A stretch of 64,000 nucleotides of DNA from the NCBI GenBank assembly GCA_018015315.1, contig GCA_018015315.1_3629.1, one strand, 5' to 3'. Positions within the stretch are counted from its first letter, which is position 1; every line of letters starts with the position of its first letter. The notes beneath the pieces were generated by a model. The model was given only the letters and a program-made list of their open reading frames with translations, was not told the origin of the DNA and ran no database searches. The stretch comes from a phage. The position numbers and the translations under genes are program-made. This document shows, one piece after another, positions 1 through 60,515 of this stretch.

Positions 1-38
1 AAAAAAATTTTTAAGCGCCCTGGAGGCTGTTGTAACGC

Positions 39-70
39 CAAAATAATAAAGGCTATGCAATCGCATAGCC
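39..70 (-). terminator. intrinsic terminator (minus-strand)
   Basis: 8-bp stem GGCUAUGC/GCAUAGCC, 4-nt loop, then UUUAUUAUUUU in transcript sense. Confidence 0.6.
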
Positions 71-108
71 AATAGGTGATTATGTTGCTGTAGGCCCTGC
101 CAGGGGCC

Positions 109-459
109 TTATTTTGCATTCTTGCCTGTATTGCCGCCACGGTACCAGCGTTTACGGTGAAAATGGTAATAATCTCCATCAGCATTGAACATCAGATGAT
201 TTTCAATAACCAGTTTACGAAGGTGGGCCGGATCTTGTTCCATTCTTGCCAGATTCCGGCGGCTGTTACGTAAGCGGATAAACTCCATATTCAGGCCGTT
301 GATCGCAGTATGGATGTCAAAGTAACCACCTTTAAGACGTTCACGCATGGCGTTAAGTTCGGAACTGTATACAGATTTTTCACAAATCAGGGCATTAGCC
401 AGGGCGCGGACCTTGGCAAGGGGGTTAAGCTCATTAAGGTAATATAGTTTAACTTTCAT
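109..459 (-). CDS. hypothetical early protein (116 aa)
   Basis: ORF track; first gene of compact minus-strand chain; terminator hairpin downstream at 39-70. Confidence 0.5.
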   Translation of the reverse strand: MKVKLYYLNELNPLAKVRALANALICEKSVYSSELNAMRERLKGGYFDIHTAINGLNMEFIRLRNSRRNLARMEQDPAHLRKLVIENHLMFNADGDYYHFHRKRWYRGGNTGKNAK

Positions 460-476
460 AAAATCACCTGCTGAAA

Positions 477-782
477 TTAGTTTGAGAAAACATCGTTCAC
501 AATAGCTATAACAATGCCGTTCACCTTGTCACGGTCAACAATACACAAATCACCATAAATCATGTGGTAGTCTGGATGATCTTTGACAGAGTAGTCAATC
601 AATGTTTTCTTATCGTCCAGCTTTTTAACTTCCATGGTCATTGTGATGAATTGCTCGTTAAAAGCGCTATTGCGGAAGACCATCACTTGACCGCCTTGAC
701 ATCCAGTGATCTCCACTTCCACGCCGTCTACGATCTGACCATCAAAGAAATAAAGATTATTGGCAGGTATAAACATAATCAT
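477..782 (-). CDS. hypothetical protein (101 aa)
   Basis: ORF track; fits minus-strand chain; no recognisable motif. Confidence 0.5.
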   Translation of the reverse strand: MIMFIPANNLYFFDGQIVDGVEVEITGCQGGQVMVFRNSAFNEQFITMTMEVKKLDDKKTLIDYSVKDHPDYHMIYGDLCIVDRDKVNGIVIAIVNDVFSN

Positions 783-819
783 TGCTCCTTTCGGTACTGA
801 TTATTTAACAGGGTTTAAA

Positions 820-863
820 TTTACTTTATTGATGGCCCTGGTGTCAAGGCCATCTAAAAATAA
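820..863. repeat. 44-bp palindromic intercistronic element, copy 1
   Basis: tttactttattGATGGCCctggtgtcaaGGCCATCtaaaaataa; identical to copy 2 over about 44 bp; abuts stop codon of gene 866..1066. Confidence 0.8.
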
Positions 864-865
864 AT

Positions 866-1066
866 TTATAAGCCTACAATCTCTTTGATTCGTCTAACTG
901 CTGCCTCAGCGCCTTGAGGATAGAAATTATGGTAACCAATCACGCGAGTGATACTAATAGCCGCTTGATGATCTTCATAATCGCCTTTGAAGATTTCTTG
1001 ACCATCAACCAGAACAGCCAGTTTTTCATCTTTTTTGAAGTTGATAACGCGGATATTCTTGCTCAT
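866..1066 (-). CDS. hypothetical small protein (about 66 aa, start MSKNIRV)
   Basis: ORF 866..1135 trimmed to internal ATG at 1066 preceded by AAGGAG; 44-bp palindromic element abuts stop codon. Confidence 0.45.
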   Translation of the reverse strand: MSKNIRVINFKKDEKLAVLVDGQEIFKGDYEDHQAAISITRVIGYHNFYPQGAEAAVRRIKEIVGL

Positions 1067-1165
1067 TTTTCTTTCTCCTTTCCAGGTCTTTGTTTGTGTA
1101 GTGGGGATGTCTCCCCGTTGATTGTTATTATCCACATTGCGGACCGGATTGCAACATCCTGGAAG

Positions 1166-1204
1166 AAAAATTTTTGAAAAAGTTAAGCCCCCATGATCGG
1201 GGGC
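1166..1204 (-). terminator. intrinsic terminator (minus-strand)
   Basis: Stem GCCCCC/GGGGGC with 6-nt loop, followed by U-rich run. Confidence 0.55.
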
Positions 1205-1209
1205 CGTTA

Positions 1210-1320
1210 TCAGTTACTTACAGCTATAAAGTACATTCCCACGCCTAGCAATATTTCAAGGGCGATGATCTCCAGCCATACTATAACATGTTGCACCTTG
1301 CCGCCAGGCTTAGGCTTATC
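1210..1320 (-). CDS. small hydrophobic peptide (about 36 aa)
   Basis: Hand-translated minus ORF MTTKDKPKPGGKVQHVIVWLEIIALEILLGVGMYFIAVSN; SD AAGGGGGAG; terminator 1166-1204 follows. Confidence 0.3.
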   Translation of the reverse strand, partial: DKPKPGGKVQHVIVWLEIIALEILLGVGMYFIAVSN

Positions 1321-1441
1321 CTTGGTTGTCATCGTCTCCCCCTTTCATTTTGTTGGTGATGACGTGATTTGCAATGGCCCCCAGGAGGCCTATCACTACG
1401 CACATTGCGAGAAAAATTATTTCTACCGTTGTTCGATCCAT
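1316..1441 (-). CDS. small membrane protein (about 41 aa)
   Basis: Internal start MDRTTVEIIFLAMCVVIGLLGAIA of ORF 1316..1501, SD GAGGAA; single predicted TM segment. Confidence 0.35.
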   Translation of the reverse strand: MDRTTVEIIFLAMCVVIGLLGAIANHVITNKMKGGDDDNQG

Positions 1442-1563
1442 TGTTATAAAATTCCTCAAGGTCAGGTTTGAAAATAAACTCTTCGGTGTCGAATCCATCA
1501 CGCCAGGCGGCTGGCTTCAGATCTTTACTAAAGGGATTAATTAGCGCGGCATTGTTGAGACGG

Positions 1564-1923
1564 TTAGCCCACATATTTTCTATTTCTCTCAAATAAGCGA
1601 TCCGCTTCAGTTAAACATATTTCATGGGCCTGATCTCTGGTTTTAGCCTCATCAAAAACTTGTTGTGCCAGGCTGCAGCGCAAGGAGACTGGAAGATCGC
1701 TATAATAGGCATTAACAAAAGTTTGTGCGTCATACAAGTCTGAAAATACTTTACCCTTTCTATTATTGCCCTTGTCAACAATTGCAAGGATGACCAGTAT
1801 AATAGTTGCAACCACTCCCAGGAAAATAGATATAACAAACCATAAGAAAGCTGACCTATCTATCTTGCCAGCGATCCAGGCGTTAAACAAGGCAACTAAT
1901 ACAGCTAAAATAATAAATTCCAT
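1564..1923 (-). CDS. membrane protein, two predicted TM helices (about 119 aa)
   Basis: ORF 1564..1956 with likely start MEFIILAVLV (SD GAGAGG); hydrophobic stretches EFIILAVLVALFNAWIAG and FLWFVISIFLGVVATIILVILAIV. Confidence 0.5.
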   Translation of the reverse strand: MEFIILAVLVALFNAWIAGKIDRSAFLWFVISIFLGVVATIILVILAIVDKGNNRKGKVFSDLYDAQTFVNAYYSDLPVSLRCSLAQQVFDEAKTRDQAHEICLTEADRLFERNRKYVG

Positions 1924-1987
1924 TCTATGTACCTCTCTTACATTTCTACTTAACAATAAGGCGGCAAATATGCCGCCTGTTACCTGG

Positions 1988-2368
1988 TTAAAAGTTATCG
2001 CCGTAAATTTTACCGCTTTCTACCCATACCACAACACGCGGCATATTATCCCATACATCTTGTTTTAGATTGAGGGCGTGCAATTCTTCGGTGGTGCTCA
2101 TACCTGGCACGGGTTGATTGTATACTGCAAAACGACCGCCTGCATAATCATAAGCCAGAGTTAAATCACACTGGATCATCTTTTTGATCATGGCGTTAAG
2201 CATAGCGGTAGCCGCATGCTGGTCACGTTTTAAAGGTAACGCTTTAATCAGTTTGCGATAGTTTTCGATATGGTCGCACACTGTTTCACGTGGAAGATCT
2301 TTCATATCTTCACGGAAGGTAACCAGGTTAAACATAACAGTGTCAATAGCTTTCGTGGTGTTTTTCAT
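1988..2368 (-). CDS. hypothetical protein (126 aa)
   Basis: ORF track; no recognisable motif. Confidence 0.5.
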   Translation of the reverse strand: MKNTTKAIDTVMFNLVTFREDMKDLPRETVCDHIENYRKLIKALPLKRDQHAATAMLNAMIKKMIQCDLTLAYDYAGGRFAVYNQPVPGMSTTEELHALNLKQDVWDNMPRVVVWVESGKIYGDNF

Positions 2369-2458
2369 AATGTTATCCTCTTCGTTTTGTGTGGGGGCAA
2401 ACGTCTTGCCCCCTTGAGTTTTAATATAGCACGTTTTTAGATTATTGCAACACTTTAC

Positions 2459-3082
2459 TTATGAAAAACTCATCTCGCCAGATTCATCGACATCAAACCG
2501 CCAGTCGTTGGCCTGGATGAGGCCGATCAAGTTCTCTGCCGTGAACTGTTCAAGATATGCCTCTTCAAGGCTTGCGTAAACCTTGCAAGATAGCTCCCGC
2601 ACCGTCTCGGTGATCAACTCTTCCAGCTCTTCCACTTTGTCTTCTTGTTTGGCGGTCAGATCCAGCCAGGTAGCATCAATATACCCGTTGATAGTATTTT
2701 CGTGACTATAGCGGCTGTATGCGTCACGTTCAACACTGGCTGATAGCTCGCCATCATGCATTGTTCCGAACAAGTGACGGATTGAGCGGAACTTAGTCAG
2801 CGCCTTGACTTTACGCAGGAATTTTTCCAGATCTACATTTTCAGCGCTAATTGATGCACCGTCGCCCTGACACCAAAAGCCGGACCAATGTACTTCAGTA
2901 TCTTCAAGGCCATACTCTGGAAAAACATATTCTTTATAGTATTCAATTACACTTTCTGCGAAAAAGTTATCACCGCTATTTTCTTCCCTTTCGCGGACCA
3001 TTTCAACGGCTTTTTCTTTTTGTTCGTCGGTCAGCACGTCGAAAGATAAATTGTAACCTGCAGTAATGTTAACGGTAGTCAT
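2459..3082 (-). CDS. hypothetical acidic protein (207 aa)
   Basis: ORF track; downstream of promoter 3142-3169 and a 5' stem-loop; motif FWCQGDGA not assigned to a family. Confidence 0.6.
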   Translation of the reverse strand: MTTVNITAGYNLSFDVLTDEQKEKAVEMVREREENSGDNFFAESVIEYYKEYVFPEYGLEDTEVHWSGFWCQGDGASISAENVDLEKFLRKVKALTKFRSIRHLFGTMHDGELSASVERDAYSRYSHENTINGYIDATWLDLTAKQEDKVEELEELITETVRELSCKVYASLEEAYLEQFTAENLIGLIQANDWRFDVDESGEMSFS

Positions 3083-3141
3083 GATATTTTCTCCTGTTTT
3101 CTTTTAAGTGGTGGCGGGAATTGTTCCCGCCTATGTGGTTA

Positions 3142-3169
3142 AGTATACTTGTTTAATCTTACTTGTCAA
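3142..3169 (-). promoter_or_regulatory. sigma70-type early promoter
   Basis: -35 TTGACA, 16-nt spacer, -10 TATACT; A/T-rich upstream; 5' stem-loop GGCGGGAA-ttg-TTCCCGCC at 3113-3131. Confidence 0.6.
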
Positions 3170-3419
3170 CACTATTTTTTAAATTATTGTGGCGTAAAAA
3201 GTTCAAGATCTCTTCAACATTGTCAACACGGCGGCAATTTTTGAACGCTACCAATTGCCCCAGGATTTTAATCACCGGGCGGCCCTGGCAGTAGCCTTGA
3301 AGAAAGCGCGCCTTAACTTTATCGGTGGAACTATCACGCCACCAAACCGCTTTATTGTTGCAGTAGTAAAAATTATTCAGGACTACATCAACTTTATCAA
3401 AATTTTTTAATTTACGCAT
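3159..3419 (-). CDS. hypothetical protein (86 aa)
   Basis: ORF track; promoter 3453-3480 upstream. Confidence 0.5.
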   Translation of the reverse strand: MRKLKNFDKVDVVLNNFYYCNNKAVWWRDSSTDKVKARFLQGYCQGRPVIKILGQLVAFKNCRRVDNVEEILNFLRHNNLKNSVDK

Positions 3420-3452
3420 GGTGTTTACTCCTTCTCTCGTTTAGATGCGGTT

Positions 3453-3480
3453 AGTATACCCTAGCTATTCCAGATGTCAA
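3453..3480 (-). promoter_or_regulatory. sigma70-type early promoter
   Basis: -35 TTGACA, 16-nt spacer, -10 TATACT. Confidence 0.55.
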
Positions 3481-3483
3481 GCC

Positions 3484-3654
3484 TTAAATTAAATCACTGT
3501 CAAAATAAACTGCTTCATTTTCATCAATGATCTCAATCTTTTTCTTTCCTAGCTCTAGGACCATGTACCAGGCTTGATCCTGAGCGGCGTCGAGATTATC
3601 ATACCATGCAATATTAACGCCTTTTTCTGTTACGTAAAACATTTTATTTTCCAT
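3484..3654 (-). CDS. hypothetical small protein (56 aa)
   Basis: Hand-translated MENKMFYVTEKGVNIAWYDNLDAAQDQAWYMVLELGKKKIEIIDENEAVYFDSDLI; SD AAGGGGAA; below ORF-track size cutoff. Confidence 0.35.
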   Translation of the reverse strand: MENKMFYVTEKGVNIAWYDNLDAAQDQAWYMVLELGKKKIEIIDENEAVYFDSDLI

Positions 3655-3665
3655 GATGTTTCCCC

Positions 3666-3764
3666 TTATTTGGAATTGCTAATGATAAAGCCTGCAAGCA
3701 AACAACCTATAACAAAACATAGGCCGCACATTATTAGTGGATTTTTAATCAGCTCGGTTAGCAT
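3666..3764 (-). CDS. small hydrophobic peptide (32 aa)
   Basis: Hand-translated MLTELIKNPLIMCGLCFVIGCLLAGFIISNSK with SD GGAGG; stop overlaps SD of next gene. Confidence 0.25.
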   Translation of the reverse strand: MLTELIKNPLIMCGLCFVIGCLLAGFIISNSK

Positions 3765-3769
3765 TTTAT

Positions 3770-3982
3770 TTACGCCTCCAATGTCATGATCTCGAACCTG
3801 GCTATAATAATCCCTACATCCACAAAGCATACAGGATCAACCATCTGGTTACATATAACCAGATGATCATCTTCCTCGTCGATGTACCAGTCATTATTGG
3901 CCTGTATTTCGTCCAGGTCATAGTAATGGCCTGCTTTGTATTTGCATTGTGCCTTGTAGTTAGAAAAATCGCAATAGACCAT
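3770..3982 (-). CDS. hypothetical protein (about 70 aa)
   Basis: ORF 3770..4000 with likely start MVYCDFSNYK after SD AGGAGA. Confidence 0.45.
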   Translation of the reverse strand: MVYCDFSNYKAQCKYKAGHYYDLDEIQANNDWYIDEEDDHLVICNQMVDPVCFVDVGIIIARFEIMTLEA

Positions 3983-4167
3983 GTTTTTTGTCTCCTGCAC
4001 CTTTCCCTTTCTTTAAATGCATCATGCTATAAAGTGTTATCCTTGTCAATGATATTTTTAACGCCATAAAACGGCCCTAGACGATGTTTTCAGGTTAAGG
4101 AAGGTGATTGCATAGGTGGGGGCGTTTATGGCTGTTGTAGGGCCAACCAGGGGCGCTATTTGAGGAT

Positions 4168-4198
4168 AGAAATAAAAAGCCCCGCCATTGTGCGGGGC
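4168..4198 (-). terminator. intrinsic terminator (minus-strand)
   Basis: Stem AGCCCCGC/GCGGGGCU then UUUUAUUUC. Confidence 0.6.
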
Positions 4199-4206
4199 TA
4201 TGGTTG

Positions 4207-4404
4207 TTATTCTTCTTTGTGTCGGTATCTTTCTGCCTGGCGTTCACGTTCAAGAAGCAAACCAGGTAACTTACGGTCGTAATGGTTGCGCCATAGCTTG
4301 CCAAATCTTTTTGGTTTGTTTAGCTTGTTGTTACGCTGGCGGCGTTCCGGCAACTCTTCGGAATCATGGGAACGCTTTACAATTTTTTCGAAATTAATTT
4401 TCAT
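4207..4404 (-). CDS. small highly basic protein (about 65 aa), possible nucleic-acid binder
   Basis: ORF 4207..4446 trimmed to MKINFEK start with SD AAGGGGGAA; Lys/Arg-rich; terminator 4168-4198 follows. Confidence 0.5.
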   Translation of the reverse strand: MKINFEKIVKRSHDSEELPERRQRNNKLNKPKRFGKLWRNHYDRKLPGLLLERERQAERYRHKEE

Positions 4405-4744
4405 AAATTCCCCCTTTGCTAACCTCAATATTTGCCTGAATTGCACGAATACGGCGCTTTATAGCTTCCTGGTTTGTGTGATCGTATCCCCAAAAGTCTA
4501 CAATTTTAGCGCCTCCAGCCTCCAGGCGATATAGTGTTTCTTGCATTTTGTAAGCGGGGATCGGTCGCGGTGTTACCTGGTCGCCTTTTTCATTCTTATA
4601 CTTGATAATATAATCTTCGTTGTCGTTGAATACCCAAAAAGGGTACGCCTCAGGAGTACTGTCTGTTTTATTTTTAGATTGGATCTTGTTTACAATTAAA
4701 GCCGTAGCAATAGCGCCGATGATAAAACTTGCCCCGCTGATCAT
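4394..4744 (-). CDS. membrane-anchored protein (116 aa)
   Basis: ORF track; N-terminal hydrophobic segment ASFIIGAIATALIV. Confidence 0.5.
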   Translation of the reverse strand: MISGASFIIGAIATALIVNKIQSKNKTDSTPEAYPFWVFNDNEDYIIKYKNEKGDQVTPRPIPAYKMQETLYRLEAGGAKIVDFWGYDHTNQEAIKRRIRAIQANIEVSKGGIYEN

Positions 4745-4818
4745 ATACTTTCTCCTTTCATGGTGTTGATAAACTATCTTTATAGATGGCCCTGTTCCAG
4801 GACCACCGAAAAAACAAT

Positions 4819-5064
4819 TTATTTCACAATCCCCACAAAACAGATCCCACCTTCACCAACATAAGCAATATCGGTAACTTTGTAATTGGTTAAGATTTGT
4901 TTATTCAGCTCATTAATAAAATCATTCATAGCTGCGGTGTAGTTGTCTTCCATATCCAAGGCATAATCCCAGGTATAAACCTTTTTACGTCCGAACCCTT
5001 TTACCATGATGCGGGCGCTTTTGGTGTTGGTCGGTGCATAGTATTTGGTGATTAATGCTGCCAT
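4819..5064 (-). CDS. hypothetical protein (81 aa)
   Basis: ORF track. Confidence 0.5.
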   Translation of the reverse strand: MAALITKYYAPTNTKSARIMVKGFGRKKVYTWDYALDMEDNYTAAMNDFINELNKQILTNYKVTDIAYVGEGGICFVGIVK

Positions 5065-5101
5065 GATTTTAACTCCTCTGTAAGTGTTAACAGTTTTTTA
5101 G

Positions 5102-5145
5102 TTTACTTTATTGATGGCCCTGGTGTCAAGGCCATCTAAAAATAA
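5102..5145. repeat. 44-bp palindromic intercistronic element, copy 2
   Basis: Same sequence as copy 1; abuts stop codon of gene 5148..5498. Confidence 0.8.
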
Positions 5146-5147
5146 GC

Positions 5148-5498
5148 TTACTCGTTTTCTTCCAGCTCTGTAAGCTCTTCTTTCACTTCTTCAAGCTCTG
5201 CCTGCAATTCTTGATAGTCTTCATCGTCTTCAATATCCAAGCTATCAATATAATCGCTAAAGCCGCAGCGATAAGCGATAGGATCCAGCTCTCTGAGGAT
5301 ACGTGAAGGAAGGAAAGAGATACAGCCGATCATAATTTCACCGTGGATCTCATCCAACCATTCATCATATTTTTCGTCGTATTTGTCCTCGTCGATCTCG
5401 AAATTATCGATCTTGTCTTCAAGTTCTGCGATCTGTTTTTTCAGAGCAGCGATCTGCATAGCTTTTTCTGCGTCAGTCATAGTGATCGTGGTATTCAT
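5148..5498 (-). CDS. acidic coiled-coil protein (116 aa)
   Basis: ORF track; Glu/Asp-rich heptad-like sequence; promoter 5551-5578 upstream; 44-bp palindrome abuts stop. Confidence 0.55.
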   Translation of the reverse strand: MNTTITMTDAEKAMQIAALKKQIAELEDKIDNFEIDEDKYDEKYDEWLDEIHGEIMIGCISFLPSRILRELDPIAYRCGFSDYIDSLDIEDDEDYQELQAELEEVKEELTELEENE

Positions 5499-5550
5499 AA
5501 TGTTTTCTCCTTTTATGTGCTCTGGGATGTACTCCCGTTTACGTGTTTAA

Positions 5551-5578
5551 GTATACTGATTTAAGTTAGCTTGTCAAT
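5551..5578 (-). promoter_or_regulatory. sigma70-type early promoter
   Basis: -35 TTGACA, 16-nt spacer, -10 TATACT; short 5' hairpin 5525-5537. Confidence 0.6.
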
Positions 5579-5694
5579 TAAAAGTTTAAGAAAAATTTTG
5601 CAAAACTGTTAGCACTACTCATCAACATTCCCGCCAGGATATAACTAACAATGCAAGCAATTACAGTTATTTTTGTATAACTATGTTTACTCAT
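5579..5694 (-). CDS. small membrane peptide (37 aa)
   Basis: Hand-translated MSKHSYTKITVIACIVSYILAGMLMSSANSFAKFFLNF with SD AAGGGGAG. Confidence 0.3.
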
Positions 5695-5734
5695 CTTATA
5701 TACTCCCCTTTTTGTAGTATTCTCTATATCTAAT

Positions 5735-5779
5735 TTATTTTATTTGATGGCCCTGGTTATCAAGGCCATCTAAAAATAA
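5735..5779. repeat. 44-bp palindromic intercistronic element, copy 3 (variant loop)
   Basis: GATGGCCctggttatcaaGGCCATCtaaaaataa; abuts stop codon of gene 5782..6168. Confidence 0.75.
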
Positions 5780-5781
5780 AC

Positions 5782-6168
5782 TCAGTAATTTTTCAACACT
5801 TTCCCGTCCAGTCTGTCAAGCTGGATCTCAATAGCTGCGGAGAATCTATTGTACACCACGTCGCCCATGGAGTCCAACCAATCTATAATATTATATACTT
5901 GCTCCTTGTTCTTGCAAGTACGTATCCGTTTCATAACGTATGCCGGATCAATATTGTTACTTCCGTGTTTATGGTCTTGCGCCAGGCTTGCAATAGCTTT
6001 CACCACCACTTGAAAGGGCTTCAAGGTGCCTTTTGCGTTCATCTCACGCGCTTTTGCGGCGCGGTTGTTATAGGTTACGATACGGCGGCAAATATTGACT
6101 AAATGCATGTCAATAATTTTTTCATCGTTTGCCAGCTCATTCATGATGCGACGGATATTTTTGTTCAT
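5782..6168 (-). CDS. hypothetical protein (128 aa)
   Basis: ORF track; promoter 6220-6247 plus 5' stem-loop upstream; 44-bp palindrome abuts stop. Confidence 0.55.
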   Translation of the reverse strand: MNKNIRRIMNELANDEKIIDMHLVNICRRIVTYNNRAAKAREMNAKGTLKPFQVVVKAIASLAQDHKHGSNNIDPAYVMKRIRTCKNKEQVYNIIDWLDSMGDVVYNRFSAAIEIQLDRLDGKVLKNY

Positions 6169-6219
6169 AGTGTTTTCTCCTAGTTGTGTTGGCGGGAATG
6201 TTTCCCGCCTTTGATATCT

Positions 6220-6247
6220 AGTCTACTTAAATTTTGCGGCGTGTCAA
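6220..6247 (-). promoter_or_regulatory. sigma70-type early promoter
   Basis: -35 TTGACA, 16-nt spacer, -10 TAGACT; 5' stem-loop GGCGGGAA-tgt-TTCCCGCC at 6191-6209. Confidence 0.55.
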
Positions 6248-6255
6248 ACTATTTT

Positions 6256-6654
6256 TTATTCGTGGGCGCATGTCACAATGTGCTTTTTATACCCCAGGTG
6301 GGCAGCAAGTGCTGACAAAAATTCTTCCTCATAGATCCAGCCGTTGGCAGTGATCCCCATAGCATTTAATGCGCTTTCAAGTGCTGCGTTGGCCTTATCA
6401 TAACCGTGTCCGCTGGCCTTGCCGCCAGTATAACCGTACTTATTGTTCTTGCTGTCGTGCATCCAAAAGACGCAATAATGAGTGTTACCGCTAGAGGCGG
6501 CATAATACCGGATCTCGGCTACTTCGTGTAAATTATTATCATCGTCCAGGCCAACCAGATTATAAGCCTTGTAAAATCCACGATCACGGCGGCAGTTCTT
6601 GACATCAGAAAAAGAGAAGTCGGCATTGTCAAAATTAAAGGTTGTGGTTTTCAT
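6256..6654 (-). CDS. hypothetical protein (132 aa)
   Basis: ORF track; promoter 6688-6715 upstream. Confidence 0.55.
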   Translation of the reverse strand: MKTTTFNFDNADFSFSDVKNCRRDRGFYKAYNLVGLDDDNNLHEVAEIRYYAASSGNTHYCVFWMHDSKNNKYGYTGGKASGHGYDKANAALESALNAMGITANGWIYEEEFLSALAAHLGYKKHIVTCAHE

Positions 6655-6687
6655 GATTTTATCCTCTTAGTGTCTTTTGTGATTTCA

Positions 6688-6715
6688 GTATATTTTGTGT
6701 CGGGGAGTATGTCAA
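6688..6715 (-). promoter_or_regulatory. sigma70-type early promoter
   Basis: -35 TTGACA, 16-nt spacer, -10 TATACT. Confidence 0.55.
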
Positions 6716-6718
6716 TAC

Positions 6719-6916
6719 TTATTTTTTATTAAACCAGTGATTGATCTGACCTTTTGTCAGGGCGCAACGATTAAGCTGTTGCAGGGTATAGCTATGACCG
6801 CGACGAAATTTATAAAGGCCTTGCCCGTTGTTGATGGTTACGTCTACCTGGCAAACCATTTGATCGGTGACCACCTGGCGAGCGTTGCGACGTGCTTTGA
6901 TTCCGTATACGTTCAT
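6719..6916 (-). CDS. hypothetical basic protein (about 65 aa)
   Basis: ORF 6719..6994 trimmed to MNVYGIKARR start after SD AGAGGAAA. Confidence 0.45.
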   Translation of the reverse strand: MNVYGIKARRNARQVVTDQMVCQVDVTINNGQGLYKFRRGHSYTLQQLNRCALTKGQINHWFNKK

Positions 6917-6997
6917 AATGTTTTCCTCTTTGCTAGTTAGTGCGGCGTTGTTCACCTTGTAGGGAAAGAATACCAGGATTAACCAGGTTGTCAATAA

Positions 6998-7168
6998 CTA
7001 TTTCAAATTATTTTTAGGGTAGAATTCACCAGCGGCGGCCCCTGCAGCCTCAACCATCATTTTTTCATAGTCCAACCAGTTGACCAGGGCATCACGCGCC
7101 GCTTTCTCACGTCTTGCATCGATATCTTTACTGTTCACTACGATATCTTTTTTATCTTTACCTTTCAT
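6998..7168 (-). CDS. hypothetical small protein (56 aa)
   Basis: Hand-translated MKGKDKKDIVVNSKDIDARREKAARDALVNWLDYEKMMVEAAGAAAGEFYPKNNLK, SD GGAGG; last minus gene before non-coding island. Confidence 0.4.
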   Translation of the reverse strand: MKGKDKKDIVVNSKDIDARREKAARDALVNWLDYEKMMVEAAGAAAGEFYPKNNLK

Positions 7169-7350
7169 TTTATTTTCCTCCCCTTGTTGGGTATCTCGGT
7201 ATCTCTTCTTCCTGATTCTTTTATACTACTCCCCAGGGCCTGGCGCAACCATTTTATAACTTTCCTCCCTGGTCCGGTCGGACATACCGGGCTGGCCCCG
7301 CCAGGCTGCAGCGGTTGGCGCACCGGGTTAGAAAATTTTTTGAAAAAGTG

Positions 7351-7379
7351 TTGACAGCGGCCCCGCCAGGTGGCATAAT
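7351..7379 (+). promoter_or_regulatory. strong sigma70-type promoter on plus strand inside minus-strand early region
   Basis: A/T-rich UP-like tract, -35 TTGACA, 17-nt spacer with TG at -15/-14, -10 CATAAT; reads into non-coding island. Confidence 0.55.
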
Positions 7380-7404
7380 GCACTCATCGAAAGGACGGCA
7401 GGCA

Positions 7405-7470
7405 CCGGTGACGGGGGAGACAACCACCGGGGATGGGCGCTATATAAAATGAGAACGGTTATCATTATCG
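7405..7470 (+). repeat. GC-hairpin module A (core GAGACAACCACCGGG plus GAGAACGGTTATCATTATC)
   Basis: GC-rich palindrome CACCGGTG...CACCGG around conserved 15-nt core at 7427-7441; about 25 nt downstream of plus promoter. Confidence 0.5.
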
Positions 7471-7529
7471 TCTAAAAATTTATGCGAAAAATCCTTGCTT
7501 TCTTTGTCCTGCGTGATACTATAATAACA

Positions 7530-7603
7530 AGCCGGGGCAACAGGGGCCGGGAGACAACCACCGGGCCTGCCCGTTATTTAGCAAACGAGAATGATTATCA
7601 TCC
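7530..7603 (+). repeat. GC-hairpin module B (core GAGACAACCACCGGG plus GAGAATGATTATCATCC)
   Basis: Same 15-nt core at 7551-7565 flanked by GGCCGGG/CCGGGCC; preceded by TATAAT-like hexamer 7520-7525. Confidence 0.5.
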
Positions 7604-7714
7604 AAAATTCTAAATGAGAACTCCTCGCATTTACTAAATTTAATTAGCATGCTAATTACCTACCGTGACAATTCTACATAAAATAATACTCCATAAAATA
7701 TTTCCATATAGAAA

Positions 7715-8166
7715 TTTTGAAAATCCATTTCCGAAAACGAAAAATCGATTTCGTTCCCAAAAATTTCAGATCGATCGCCAGACCAATTTCCAGAAAATCC
7801 GATTCAGAAAACGAAAAACAGATCGAGTACTGAGAAATTTATCGAGAAAAATTTTCAGAAAATCCAAGCCCTGAAATGAAAAGTAGATCGAGTACCTGGA
7901 AAGCTGCACCGCAACTTCAAGATAGTGGTTAGATTGTTACCATAGAAGGTCAAGGGTAAGTGGAGGAAGTTCTAGTAGAGAGAGGTTAGCATGTGTGGGA
8001 AATCTATAATGGTGGCCTGGAATATGGTGCAAACGATAGGATGAGTTATTCAGCTTGTCGCGCCTACTCTGAAAAATCCATTTTAGTTTTCGATCCATTT
8101 TCTGATTTTCTAAGAATTTTAAAATATCCGGCCCGGTGAAATATCAAAAGGAGGAAATCCATTTTA
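7715..8166 (+). repeat. array of degenerate direct repeats with core GAAAATCC(A)
   Basis: Core at about 7719, 7793, 7858, 8072, 8153; three units share ...GAAAAnnGATCGAGTAC; two distal units share GAAATCCATTTTAG; no convincing ORF. Confidence 0.6.
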
Positions 8167-8207
8167 GAAATCCCCCTTATACTTGATATGCCAGGAATTT
8201 TCAAGTA

Positions 8208-8537
8208 TCAGCTGTCTTTGTTTTTAGGTTTGTACATGCGCAGAGGTATGGTCTTTGTAACATTCCATTTCCTCAACCCTTCCCAGCTCCAGTTGTGGGC
8301 GTGATACCCGGTTATGCATGCACTGCTGGCGTGATCATAAGCATAAGAGAACGCTATGTGCACCAGGTGGGGCCAGTCCTTCCACGGCTGTGGACCGTAA
8401 GCCTTTCTCCAACACCGACACAAACTAATTGTCTCAAGAATAGGGAGAATAACAATTCCATATACCACCACCAGAATGGTCAGTGCAATGATTGTCAGGA
8501 ACACATACCCTGCAGTTGAAATGATGATCTCTGTCAT
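8208..8537 (-). CDS. integral membrane protein (109 aa)
   Basis: ORF track; hydrophobic stretch YVFLTIIALTILVVVYGIVILPIL. Confidence 0.5.
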   Translation of the reverse strand: MTEIIISTAGYVFLTIIALTILVVVYGIVILPILETISLCRCWRKAYGPQPWKDWPHLVHIAFSYAYDHASSACITGYHAHNWSWEGLRKWNVTKTIPLRMYKPKNKDS

Positions 8538-8737
8538 TTGTCGTCCCCTTTCTTACGAATATAGATGTGAGAGCCTGCCTGTATATAAATTTCTCGACCA
8601 TCCTCTGCAAAGATATGAAATACACGATCACCTTCGTACTCGATACTAGATATCTTCATAATGGTCTTTCCACCTGGGATACGGATCTCGTCCCCCACAG
8701 CGATGTTCCATGCAGATTTAAGCTTAAACATCTGCAC
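8534..8737 (-). CDS. hypothetical protein (67 aa)
   Basis: ORF track; 4-nt overlap with next gene. Confidence 0.45.
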   Translation of the reverse strand: MQMFKLKSAWNIAVGDEIRIPGGKTIMKISSIEYEGDRVFHIFAEDGREIYIQAGSHIYIRKKGDDK

Positions 8738-8969
8738 CCTCCTTTGGGAACTTGAATTCTGGCATAGCCGTATACGCTACAACAGGGTTGTGATCAAAGT
8801 AGAACTGACCGTTAATTATCCCGGTTTTGTCCACATAGTTACCAGATCCTGCAAGAACAACCTCGCAAGCTCCGAAATCCACATTGCCATTCTCATCTGC
8901 CATGGCTACAATATACTTTCCTAGAGGCATGTTTTTAACGCCGTCTACAAATGTCCACCCTTTGTTCAT
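8724..8969 (-). CDS. hypothetical protein (81 aa)
   Basis: ORF track. Confidence 0.5.
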   Translation of the reverse strand: MNKGWTFVDGVKNMPLGKYIVAMADENGNVDFGACEVVLAGSGNYVDKTGIINGQFYFDHNPVVAYTAMPEFKFPKEGADV

Positions 8970-8990
8970 AACTTTATCTCCTGGACTTTC

Positions 8991-9323
8991 TTAAGGTAAC
9001 CAGTAAACAATTTCGCCTTTCAGTTCCATGTCGTTACCGACATAGATTTTCCAGCCATCCATTTTAGCCACTGCAGGAGTGAAGTCCGAAGAACCACTAA
9101 CCTCTTTCCAAGTCCCGTAGTCAGGTTGCCAGATATAGAATCCACCTTCCTTGTCCCATGCTCCATATACCACATCGAGCAGGTTGCCCATTGCAACAAT
9201 AGTAGGCCGTGGGAACAATGCATCTACAGATGCGCCACAATATCTAGTATCTTTTAAATTGCACTCCCAAAAGATGTCTGCCAGTGTGGCGGCGATAGCT
9301 TTACGTCTTTCTAATGTTACCAT
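8991..9323 (-). CDS. hypothetical protein (110 aa)
   Basis: ORF track. Confidence 0.5.
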   Translation of the reverse strand: MVTLERRKAIAATLADIFWECNLKDTRYCGASVDALFPRPTIVAMGNLLDVVYGAWDKEGGFYIWQPDYGTWKEVSGSSDFTPAVAKMDGWKIYVGNDMELKGEIVYWLP

Positions 9324-28540: not shown

Positions 28541-28566
28541 ATAACTCCAAATAGAAAATCCCCGCC
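28541..28566 (-). terminator. intrinsic terminator, UUCG-loop family
   Basis: CCCCGC-UUCG-GCGGGG then AUUUUCUAUUU. Confidence 0.55.
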
Positions 28567-28587
28567 GAAGCGGGGTGGTCTTAGAAA

Positions 28588-54978: not shown

Positions 54979-55006
54979 CATAAAAATAAACCCCGCCGAA
55001 GCGGGG
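54979..55006 (-). terminator. intrinsic terminator, UUCG-loop family
   Basis: AGCCCCGC-UUCG-GCGGGG then UUUAUUUUUAUG. Confidence 0.7.
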
Positions 55007-60482: not shown

Positions 60483-60515
60483 ATATAAACAAAAAGCCCC
60501 CGCCGAAGCGAGGGC
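60483..60515 (-). terminator. intrinsic terminator, UUCG-loop family
   Basis: GCCCUCGC-UUCG-GCGGGGGC then UUUUUGUUUAU. Confidence 0.6.

Follow-up and report, generated by a model that had tools for sequence, protein, structure and literature searches.

We analysed a 64,000-nucleotide stretch of phage DNA (contig GCA_018015315.1_3629.1 of NCBI GenBank assembly GCA_018015315.1; hereafter the window), and describe a short palindromic element that is repeated among the early genes at its beginning. The genes in positions 1-8000 are small open reading frames (ORFs) on the minus strand. The first 8 kb of the window are 95% identical to Escherichia phage MiataMamis and ~87% identical to approximately 120 rV5-like phages (including rV5/FFH2), and hence the phage is assigned to Vequintavirus, the rV5-like phages, and not to the T4-type phages. 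Window and MiataMamis are essentially identical (~100%) over 12 kb outside imported patches. Proteins encoded beside the element copies match only PHROG families of unknown function, and a homologue search found one flanking gene, of 101 aa, to be restricted to the genus.

A covariance model, run with its filters off, recovers exactly four copies of the element in the window (Table 1): three main copies (c1, c2 and c3) and a diverged fourth (v4). The original prediction had described the three main copies, all of which are present, and overlooked the fourth, the coding strand of which reads GGTGGTCCTG-GAA-CAGGGCCATC at 4785-4807; v4 stands in the table of direct repeats, is confirmed by the covariance model, and is kept in all relatives examined. 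As predicted, c1 (820-863) and c2 (5102-5145) share 44 nt without a single difference; their repeat unit reaches 64 nt at 91% identity (805-868 vs 5087-5150). The element measures roughly 65 bases from the upstream stop codon. The third copy, by contrast, was said to differ in its loop alone; its loop (ATAAC) is indeed one base longer, but its coding-strand 3' flank is also different, being AAATAAAATAAATT where c1 and c2 have AATAAAGTAAAYT. A degenerate hairpin pattern has five strand-matches against 0.04 expected from shuffles, and five were reached in 0/100 shuffles. Neither the window nor the remaining 73 kb of MiataMamis, the closest complete genome (137 kb in total), contains further diverged copies detectable by the covariance model with filters off.

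Table 1. Coordinates of the element copies, their context and associated features in the window.
Feature	Position	Strand	Details
c1, full element	806-876	-	covariance-model hit, 85.6 bits
c1, upper stem and loop	831-854	-	
c1, lower-stem 5' arm	857-868	-	
c1, lower-stem 3' arm	816-827	-	
c1, context	866-868	-	stop codon of upstream 66-aa gene, at base of lower stem; next gene starts at 782
c2, full element	5088-5158	-	covariance-model hit, 82 bits; hairpin core 5113-5136
c2, context	5148-5150	-	upstream stop codon; next gene (81 aa) starts at 5064
c3, variant copy	5721-5792	-	covariance-model hit, 65.7 bits; hairpin core 5746-5770 with 5-nt loop AUAAC
c3, context	5782-5784	-	upstream stop codon; next gene (38 aa) starts at 5694
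v4, diverged fourth copy	4761-4829	-	covariance-model hit, 67.5 bits; core 4785-4807 (GGUGGUCCUG-GAA-CAGGGCCAUC)
v4, context	4819-4821	-	upstream stop codon; next gene (116 aa) starts at 4744
Two-gene cassette between c3 and c2	5146-5779	-	634 bp; genes 5578-5694 and 5148-5498
Canonical early promoter TTGACA-16-TAGACT	6220-6247	-	predicted transcript runs into c3, placing c3 inside the operon
Canonical early promoter TTGACA-16-TATACT	5550-5577	-	predicted transcript runs through c2 and v4 to terminator 4199-4178
Promoter-like site TTGCAA-16-GATAAT	1127-1154	-	upstream of 66-aa gene; predicted transcript runs through c1 to terminator 70-51

The copies together span less than 5 kb of the early ORFan region, where each is intercistronic between minus-strand genes. 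Each of the four copies opens with its A+T-rich arm at the upstream stop codon, and the start of the G+C stem follows exactly 11 nt later (10-12 nt in other phages); the original placement of the element within 3 nt of the stop codon is thus correct for the arm, although not for the stem. An AGGAG-type Shine-Dalgarno (SD) sequence and the ATG of the next gene lie 39-51 nt past the hairpin core in all copies. The stop-to-stem distance is constant despite the upstream genes of the four loci being mutually unrelated. Such constancy, at all four loci of all phages examined, might be expected of a stop-proximal hairpin which, like repetitive extragenic palindromic (REP) elements, influences how translation of the upstream ORF terminates, through ribosome stalling and tagging by transfer-messenger RNA (tmRNA); both effects were reported by Liang, Rudd and Deutscher in 2015 for a REP within ~15 nt of a stop codon. 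However, the spacing would follow automatically if the A+T arm belongs to the repeat unit and the cassettes join at the stop codon, and we regard a role in translation termination as improbable.

The element was found in 121 phage records, all rV5-like and usually with three BLAST-detectable places per record, and in none of 5,426 E. coli genomes (20,395 records). A host origin was rejected on this absence; the lone 'plasmid' match proved to be the genome of an rV5-like phage deposited under that label. An exact-pattern scan of IMG/VR returned only two rV5-like contigs, its remaining matches being chance occurrences inside genes, and a search of Rfam with window 1-9000 returned only two weak, unrelated matches below threshold. 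Chi and restriction sites were considered as explanations and rejected, since both match only partially. The GenBank record of rV5 has no annotation at the element sites, nor does the rV5 genome paper mention the element. Seventeen 'Campylobacter phage' records (MG0656xx) and the 137.5-kb E. coli 'plasmid' CP057073.1 are, by sequence, rV5-like coliphage genomes, and are probably mislabelled or contaminant assemblies. The record of Campylobacter phage C7 (UNVERIFIED; L027 9979) has a c1 lacking ~12 nt of its 3' flank, comprising the lower-stem arm and the -10-like box, with the upper hairpin intact.

RNA folding of the coding strand produced the same bipartite hairpin in all four copies, and comparison with the region from 14 further genomes and one IMG/VR contig shows how it has been maintained. 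A G+C-rich upper stem of 10 bp (GAUGGCCUUG/CAGGGCCAUC, including one U.G pair) stands over an A-U lower stem of 7-13 bp, formed by the U-rich tract after the stop codon and AAAGUAA..., with an asymmetric 2x3 internal loop between them (2x4 in c3) and a terminal loop of 3-5 nt. The GATGGCC/GGCCATC stem originally described is therefore present, although on the coding strand it extends to 10 bp, not 7, and rests on the lower stem. Folding energies and z-scores of the coding strand are -27.7 kcal/mol and -5.7 for c1, -20.7 kcal/mol and -4.6 for c2, -22.6 kcal/mol and -5.7 for c3, and -27.4 kcal/mol and -4.2 for v4, which has a 13-bp lower stem. Against this range (-4.2 to -5.7), the opposite strand has z-scores of -0.6 to -3.3, the former belonging to v4, which has no fold on the plus strand. 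The coding strand is the more stable in 36/36 distinct sequences from 14 phages, with mean folding energies of -24.3 vs -18.3 kcal/mol for the main copies and -26.9 vs -12.8 kcal/mol for v4. The fold is strand-specific because its G.U pairs become C.A on the opposite strand.

When 30 sequences are aligned, 94.7% of cells pair; displacing the partners by 1-3 columns lowers this to 36-55%. Five lower-stem pairs differ on both sides between the main and v4 classes (for example A-U/G-C/G.U, A-U/U-A and U-A/G.U). The upper stem of v4 departs from that of the main copies by three transitions, each confined to one arm and each preserving the pair (A-U to G.U, C-G to U.G, U.G to C-G), and in the v4 of phita32 the U.G has reverted to C-G. 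All 20 of the 20 stem positions are invariant in the main copies across the phages compared, and the last two loop positions are hypervariable, with all bases seen (ACAC, ACTC, ACTT, ACGC, ACCC, ACC, ATAAC). We consider the covariation good, not overwhelming; taken together with the strand asymmetry, it establishes, at the level of comparative sequence analysis, that the sense-strand RNA hairpin is the conserved feature of the element. This fold of the mRNA strand is what is most evidently under selection, which is compatible with a role in stabilising 3' ends or in processing. Variability of the loops themselves (841-844, 5123-5126, 5756-5760 and 4795-4797) is far above the divergence of their flanks, both between phages and between copies, and could mean that the loops drift freely, that the extruded hairpin is a mutational hot spot, or that copies exchange sequence with each other.

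The same palindrome might instead be read in DNA, as an operator overlapping the -35 box and bound by a dimeric phage or host protein. The 7-bp inverted repeat GATGGCC/GGCCATC is perfect, and across ~120 genomes it does not vary at all in the main copies, a constancy for which a hairpin alone does not account. Yet the spacing of the half-sites shifts with the 3-5-nt loop, the half-sites of v4 are unequal (GGTGGTC vs GATGGCC) with only RNA pairing kept, the A-U lower stem covaries, and no DNA-binding domain was found in the products of the genes flanking the copies. An operator-like site, one of the functions originally suggested, fits poorly with an asymmetric dyad in which it is RNA pairing, through G.U, that has been preserved, and we judge it very improbable.

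The copies do not stand at the ends of operons. Canonical early promoters of the form AAAAAATAGT-TTGACA-N16/17-TATACT occur at 6247, 5577, 3480, 3169 and elsewhere, and three arrangements surround the element: P6247 - gene - c3 - gene; P5577 - gene - c2 - gene - v4 - gene - gene - terminator; and P1154 - gene - c1 - gene - gene - terminator. The only terminators serving these operons in a scan for terminator-like sites are 4199-4178 and 70-51. The element copies are therefore expected within polycistronic early RNAs, and we infer that they are transcribed as part of polycistronic early mRNA.

That the hairpin might itself be an intrinsic (Rho-independent) terminator is suggested by annotation. 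The GenBank record of Murica labels c1 and v4 'terminator', and those of Alma and HdK5 have a 'terminator' feature somewhere under the 1.9-kb c3-v4 match. Furthermore, the hairpins are stable and G+C-rich, and the stem-loops of promoter-early stem-loop (PeSL) cassettes, to which we return below, lower the expression of a reporter to the same extent as rrnB T1 does (Arbiol et al. 2010, PMC2839356). However, no copy has a U-tract after the hairpin: AAUAAAG comes next on the coding strand, and UAAAAAU on the opposite strand. Both strands have their U-rich run on the 5' side of the hairpin, an arrangement opposite to that of a bidirectional terminator. The scan that detected 4199-4178 and 70-51 listed no element copy. 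Because there is no U-tract, the copies are not canonical terminators, as the original prediction had already recognised. The genes downstream of v4 have no other promoter, and full termination would silence them. Intrinsic termination is accordingly given little probability here, and the database annotations at the element sites are probably wrong.

A more specific candidate, and one that would be a particular version of the RNA role, is an RNase III processing site of the T7 early-mRNA type, in which the upper stem, once a single cut in the asymmetric internal loop had separated the cistrons, would stay on the upstream message as a protective 3' hairpin. Recognition by E. coli RNase III takes ~22 bp, or two helical turns, and internal loops limit cutting to one strand, yielding stabilising 3' hairpins (Nicholson review). 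In c1 and v4, stems of 10 and 12-13 bp surround the 2x3 loop (22 and 23 bp in total), and the elements are intercistronic in early operons of the host polymerase. On the other hand, the lower stem of c2 and c3 has only 7-9 bp (17-19 bp in total), the c1 of phage C7 has lost its 3' lower arm while keeping the upper stem, and no Rfam family matches. The fourth pair from the internal loop is G-C and would block cleavage if it corresponds to position 4 of the proximal box (Nicholson review). RNase III processing is hence a tentative proposal, possible but a good deal short of probable.

The element also resembles a promoter. On the minus strand, c1 has a -35-like TTGACA (847-842) and a -10-like TAAATT (823-818), and c2 has a -35-like box at 5129-5124 and a -10-like TAAACT at 5105-5100; TTGACA-18 bp-TAAAYT scores 10/12 for both in a scan against the promoter consensus. 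The original prediction dismissed the promoter for a poor -10, and these scores are better than that, although the spacer is long and the reading fails for v4 and for the c3 of the window. An SD sequence and ATG follow the boxes by ~30 nt in the main copies. Upstream of c1, AAATTTATTTTT fits the distal UP-element consensus reported by Estrem in 1998. TTGAC is kept in every main copy except the window's c3 (TTGAT), the sixth position of the hexamer being free; at its first T the main copies retain a U.G wobble in place of the C-G pair of v4, and half of the hexamer lies in the stem and half in the loop. In HMD-6 a 1-nt loop deletion is offset by a 1-nt insertion in the flank, preserving the 18-bp spacing.

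These features, together with the UP-like T tract upstream, might be taken to indicate a plain sigma-70 early promoter in which the palindrome is incidental. Against this, neither the 5' arm upstream of the -35 nor any of the spacer varies, and the two are complementary, although a promoter has no such requirement; and v4, without a -35, keeps its hairpin through pairing-preserving changes in every phage. Spacers of 20 bp (the window's c3) and 19 bp (c1 of WM) also occur, and the fold is specific to one strand through G.U pairs. Hence, a promoter and nothing else is an unlikely account, and a promoter cannot be the sole function of the element. For an internal promoter within the three main copies, judged from these boxes, we consider the chances about even.

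Comparison between genomes provides a third aspect of the element. In magaca/ime, phiWec189, ECP32 and the IMG/VR contig L015, precisely the 634-bp c3-c2 interval is missing, and at the junction these genomes have one chimeric element, combining the upstream flank of c3 with the downstream flank of c2. Magaca and ime are 99-100% identical, and at least three lineages are without the interval. On either side of it, their nearest relatives are genomes that do bear the interval: rV5 for phiWec189 (98.5%), V18 for ECP32 (96.7%) and Murica for magaca (96.6%); because these nearest relatives retain the interval, the event has either recurred or spread by recombination. The original prediction called for comparative genomics to see whether copies flank differences in gene content, and here they do: for c3 and c2, genome comparison has shown the element to be a recombination joint. 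The three main copies are the longest near-exact repeats of the region. Of the imported patches that separate the window from MiataMamis, three ends lie at or beside elements: 40 nt ahead of the c2 stop (5190), in the v4 loop (4797) and on the 3' side of c3. Among 12 genomes this 7-kb stretch has three large indels: elements bound one of them, two TTGACA boxes belonging to ordinary promoters bound another, and the last has neither at its ends.

Two further readings were tried and rejected. The single copy in the experimentally evolved phage rV5_ev146 does not derive from recombination between copies, since its deletions start and end elsewhere. GTTRRRY-like motifs (GTTAAAT, GTTAAGC) downstream of some copies recall an integron attC-like site; c2 has GTTAACA, and no integrase is present.

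Other segments of the early region also vary in content. Window 3470-4038, of ~570 bp with three small ORFs, is found only in the window and MiataMamis among the 12 genomes, and has a TTGACA -35 box at both edges (...ATCATTGACA/AGG... and ...ATTTTGACA/GTG...); because TTGACA boxes bound it on both sides, it looks like a cassette insertion at promoter motifs. At window 120-464, a 116-aa gene (109-459) is missing from rV5, V18, phita32, HMD-6 and WM in an indel that is not bounded by elements. The 81-aa gene between c2 and v4 (4822-5064) has homologues of 30-47% identity in CAjan-like siphoviruses, Pseudomonas myoviruses and Klebsiella podoviruses, and appears to be horizontally mobile. Outside the rV5-like phages its homologues belong only to such unrelated phages; as these are not syntenic with the window, they offer no more distant versions of the element in its context for the covariation. 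Beyond the element, a 48-nt A-rich repeat (GAAAATCC...CGAAAA...) occurs three times, at spacings of 65-74 nt, in an apparently non-coding stretch (7719-7905). The CCCCGCCGAAGCGGGG hairpin family recurs at 28548-28575, 54979-55006 and 60486-60513, and looks like ordinary terminators of the late region.

The best explanation, which we hold to be somewhat better than even in likelihood, is that each genome carries four intercistronic, regulatory, PeSL-like cassettes that combine an RNA hairpin, an overlapping promoter and a recombination joint. The hairpin would punctuate the polycistronic message, either by attenuating read-through or by forming or protecting the 3' end of the upstream cistron, possibly once RNase III has cut a single time within the internal loop, in the fashion of the early processing sites of T7. 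The T-rich UP-like tract, TTGACn, 18-bp spacer and TAAAYT of the three main copies would probably constitute a sigma-70 promoter re-initiating transcription for the downstream gene, a step whose odds we put at about even; v4 has lost the promoter reading and retains the hairpin only. The main copies also act as substrates for homologous recombination, by which the intervening genes are removed or added, as seen for c3 and c2.

Several observations weigh against this composite function. For transcription, the literature searched yielded no transcriptome study of a Vequintavirus. For the promoter part, the 18-bp spacer is long and the -10 box matches at only 4/6 positions; in the c3 of the window the boxes TTGATA and TAAATT are 20 bp apart, and because of this distance the promoter reading fails there; v4 has no TTGACA or other -35 and keeps the hairpin alone; and the copies are without the AAAAAATAGT upstream motif, the TATACT -10 and the 5' untranslated region (5'-UTR) hairpin of the canonical early promoters nearby. 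For the RNA part, a lower stem of 7-9 bp in c2 and c3, and 17-19 bp overall, is short for RNase III; covariation is mostly a contrast between main and v4 paralogues and hence comprises few independent events, and its shuffle control is not to be read as a probability; and the total invariance of the main-copy stems exceeds the needs of a generic hairpin, and may point to gene conversion or to a sequence-specific reader. For the joint, element-bounded indels are of a single type, and no element stands at the ends of the two remaining large indels of the 7-kb stretch.

A bolder form of the proposal is a dual code. The same 24 nt would serve as a -35 region on DNA and as a sequence-specific, stop-anchored hairpin on RNA, setting the ratio of upstream to downstream cistron through RNase III or a phage or host factor, and the frozen sequence would make a portable PeSL-style joint (possibly via mini-circles) that moves ORFan cassettes within rV5-like phages and to and from Krischvirus (RB49/phi1-type). 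We offer this as speculation and think it unlikely as a whole. Under the composite reading that we prefer, the element would provide a handle on the punctuation of early polycistronic messages in the rV5-like Vequintavirus, a therapeutically used phage group.

Each part of the element has parallels elsewhere. The polycistronic early transcript of T7 contains five RNase III signals (Nicholson review). Like the element, these are intercistronic hairpins in early transcripts of the host polymerase, built of an upper and a lower stem on either side of an asymmetric internal loop, approximately two helical turns in all; however, the two share no sequence relationship, two copies of the element have short lower stems, and the T7 sites are neither promoters nor recombination repeats. 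In promoter-coupled terminators, the promoter of the following unit takes its -35 hexamer from the DNA of a stem-loop (Fletcher et al. 2026 preprint, 10.64898/2026.08.19.745784). There, as here, stem-loop DNA at the end of one transcription unit would supply the -35 of the next, but theirs has a T-tract between hairpin and -10, whereas the element has AATAAAG in that place and its T-tract 5' of the hairpin. REP elements protect upstream mRNA against 3' exonucleases. They too are repeated, imperfect palindromes just past stop codons inside operons, with conserved stems and free loops; the element differs in having no sequence similarity to REP, no copies in E. coli and no RAYT transposase, and in being phage-specific.

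The closest parallel drawn by the original prediction was with PeSL cassettes, known from the T4-like phages RB49/phi1, PST/T4 and nt-1/KVP40 (Arbiol et al. 2010, PMC2839356; Comeau et al. 2014, PMC4122927), and the anatomy matches the published description although the phage itself is rV5-like. A PeSL comprises a stop codon within an AT-rich tract, sigma-70 boxes, a stem-loop that overlaps the -35 in some classes, G-T pairs in the stem, and an SD sequence and ATG at its 3' end; PeSLs are concentrated in ORFan-rich regions, and an ORFan between two of them is replaced in a relative by a single chimeric PeSL (Arbiol 2010, PMC2839356). PeSLs are further marked by demonstrated activity as promoters and attenuators and by mini-circles that are excised. 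The element likewise starts at a stop codon, with 11 A/T-rich nt before the stem at 4/4 loci; its 10-bp stem, the 5' arm and loop of which contain TTGACn, includes G.U pairs; the SD and ATG of the next gene stand at its 3' end; it is repeated and confined to an ORFan-rich early region; and a gene segment flanked by two copies is replaced by one chimeric copy in relatives. In PeSLs the boxes are about 17 bp apart, against 18 bp in c1 and c2 (10/12) and 20 bp in c3, with no -35 in v4. The element differs in occurring in a Vequintavirus and not a T4-like phage, in forming a tiny family of four copies and one sequence type, in a promoter part (18-bp spacer, TAAAYT) that is weaker than the near-consensus promoters of PeSLs and missing from one copy, and in a bipartite stem-loop of ~22 bp with clear evidence of selection on the sense-strand RNA.

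The canonical promoters of the window offer a second point of comparison. Minus-strand promoters in 1100-7000 lie at 6994, 6715, 6247, 5577, 3480, 3169, 2450 and 1154, and most are followed by a 5'-UTR hairpin of G-run, loop and C-run; promoters and hairpins together look like PeSLs of the class with a 'stem-loop downstream of the -10'. The motif past the -10 is alike in a phi1 PeSL (L035 2304-2373; TATAAT-AACCGCATCAAA) and a canonical promoter of the window (TATACT-AACCGCATCTAA), and phi1/RB49 have ORFs in common with the early region of the window. Because of these shared ORFs and the shared motif, the link between the element and the PeSLs of phi1/RB49 may be more than analogy.

Composite promoter and stem-loop cassettes are the proposed joints for shuffling small accessory genes in T4-like phages, and the literature searched reports no PeSL outside that group; the present element would thus be a new instance of PeSL-type architecture, in a phage lineage unrelated to it. 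The recurring, cassette-sized indel and the selection at the RNA level suggest a more general way of plugging ORFan genes into early operons. On this comparison the element appears to be the counterpart, in the rV5 family, of the PeSL cassettes whose stem-loop overlaps the -35, with its promoter part being predicted.

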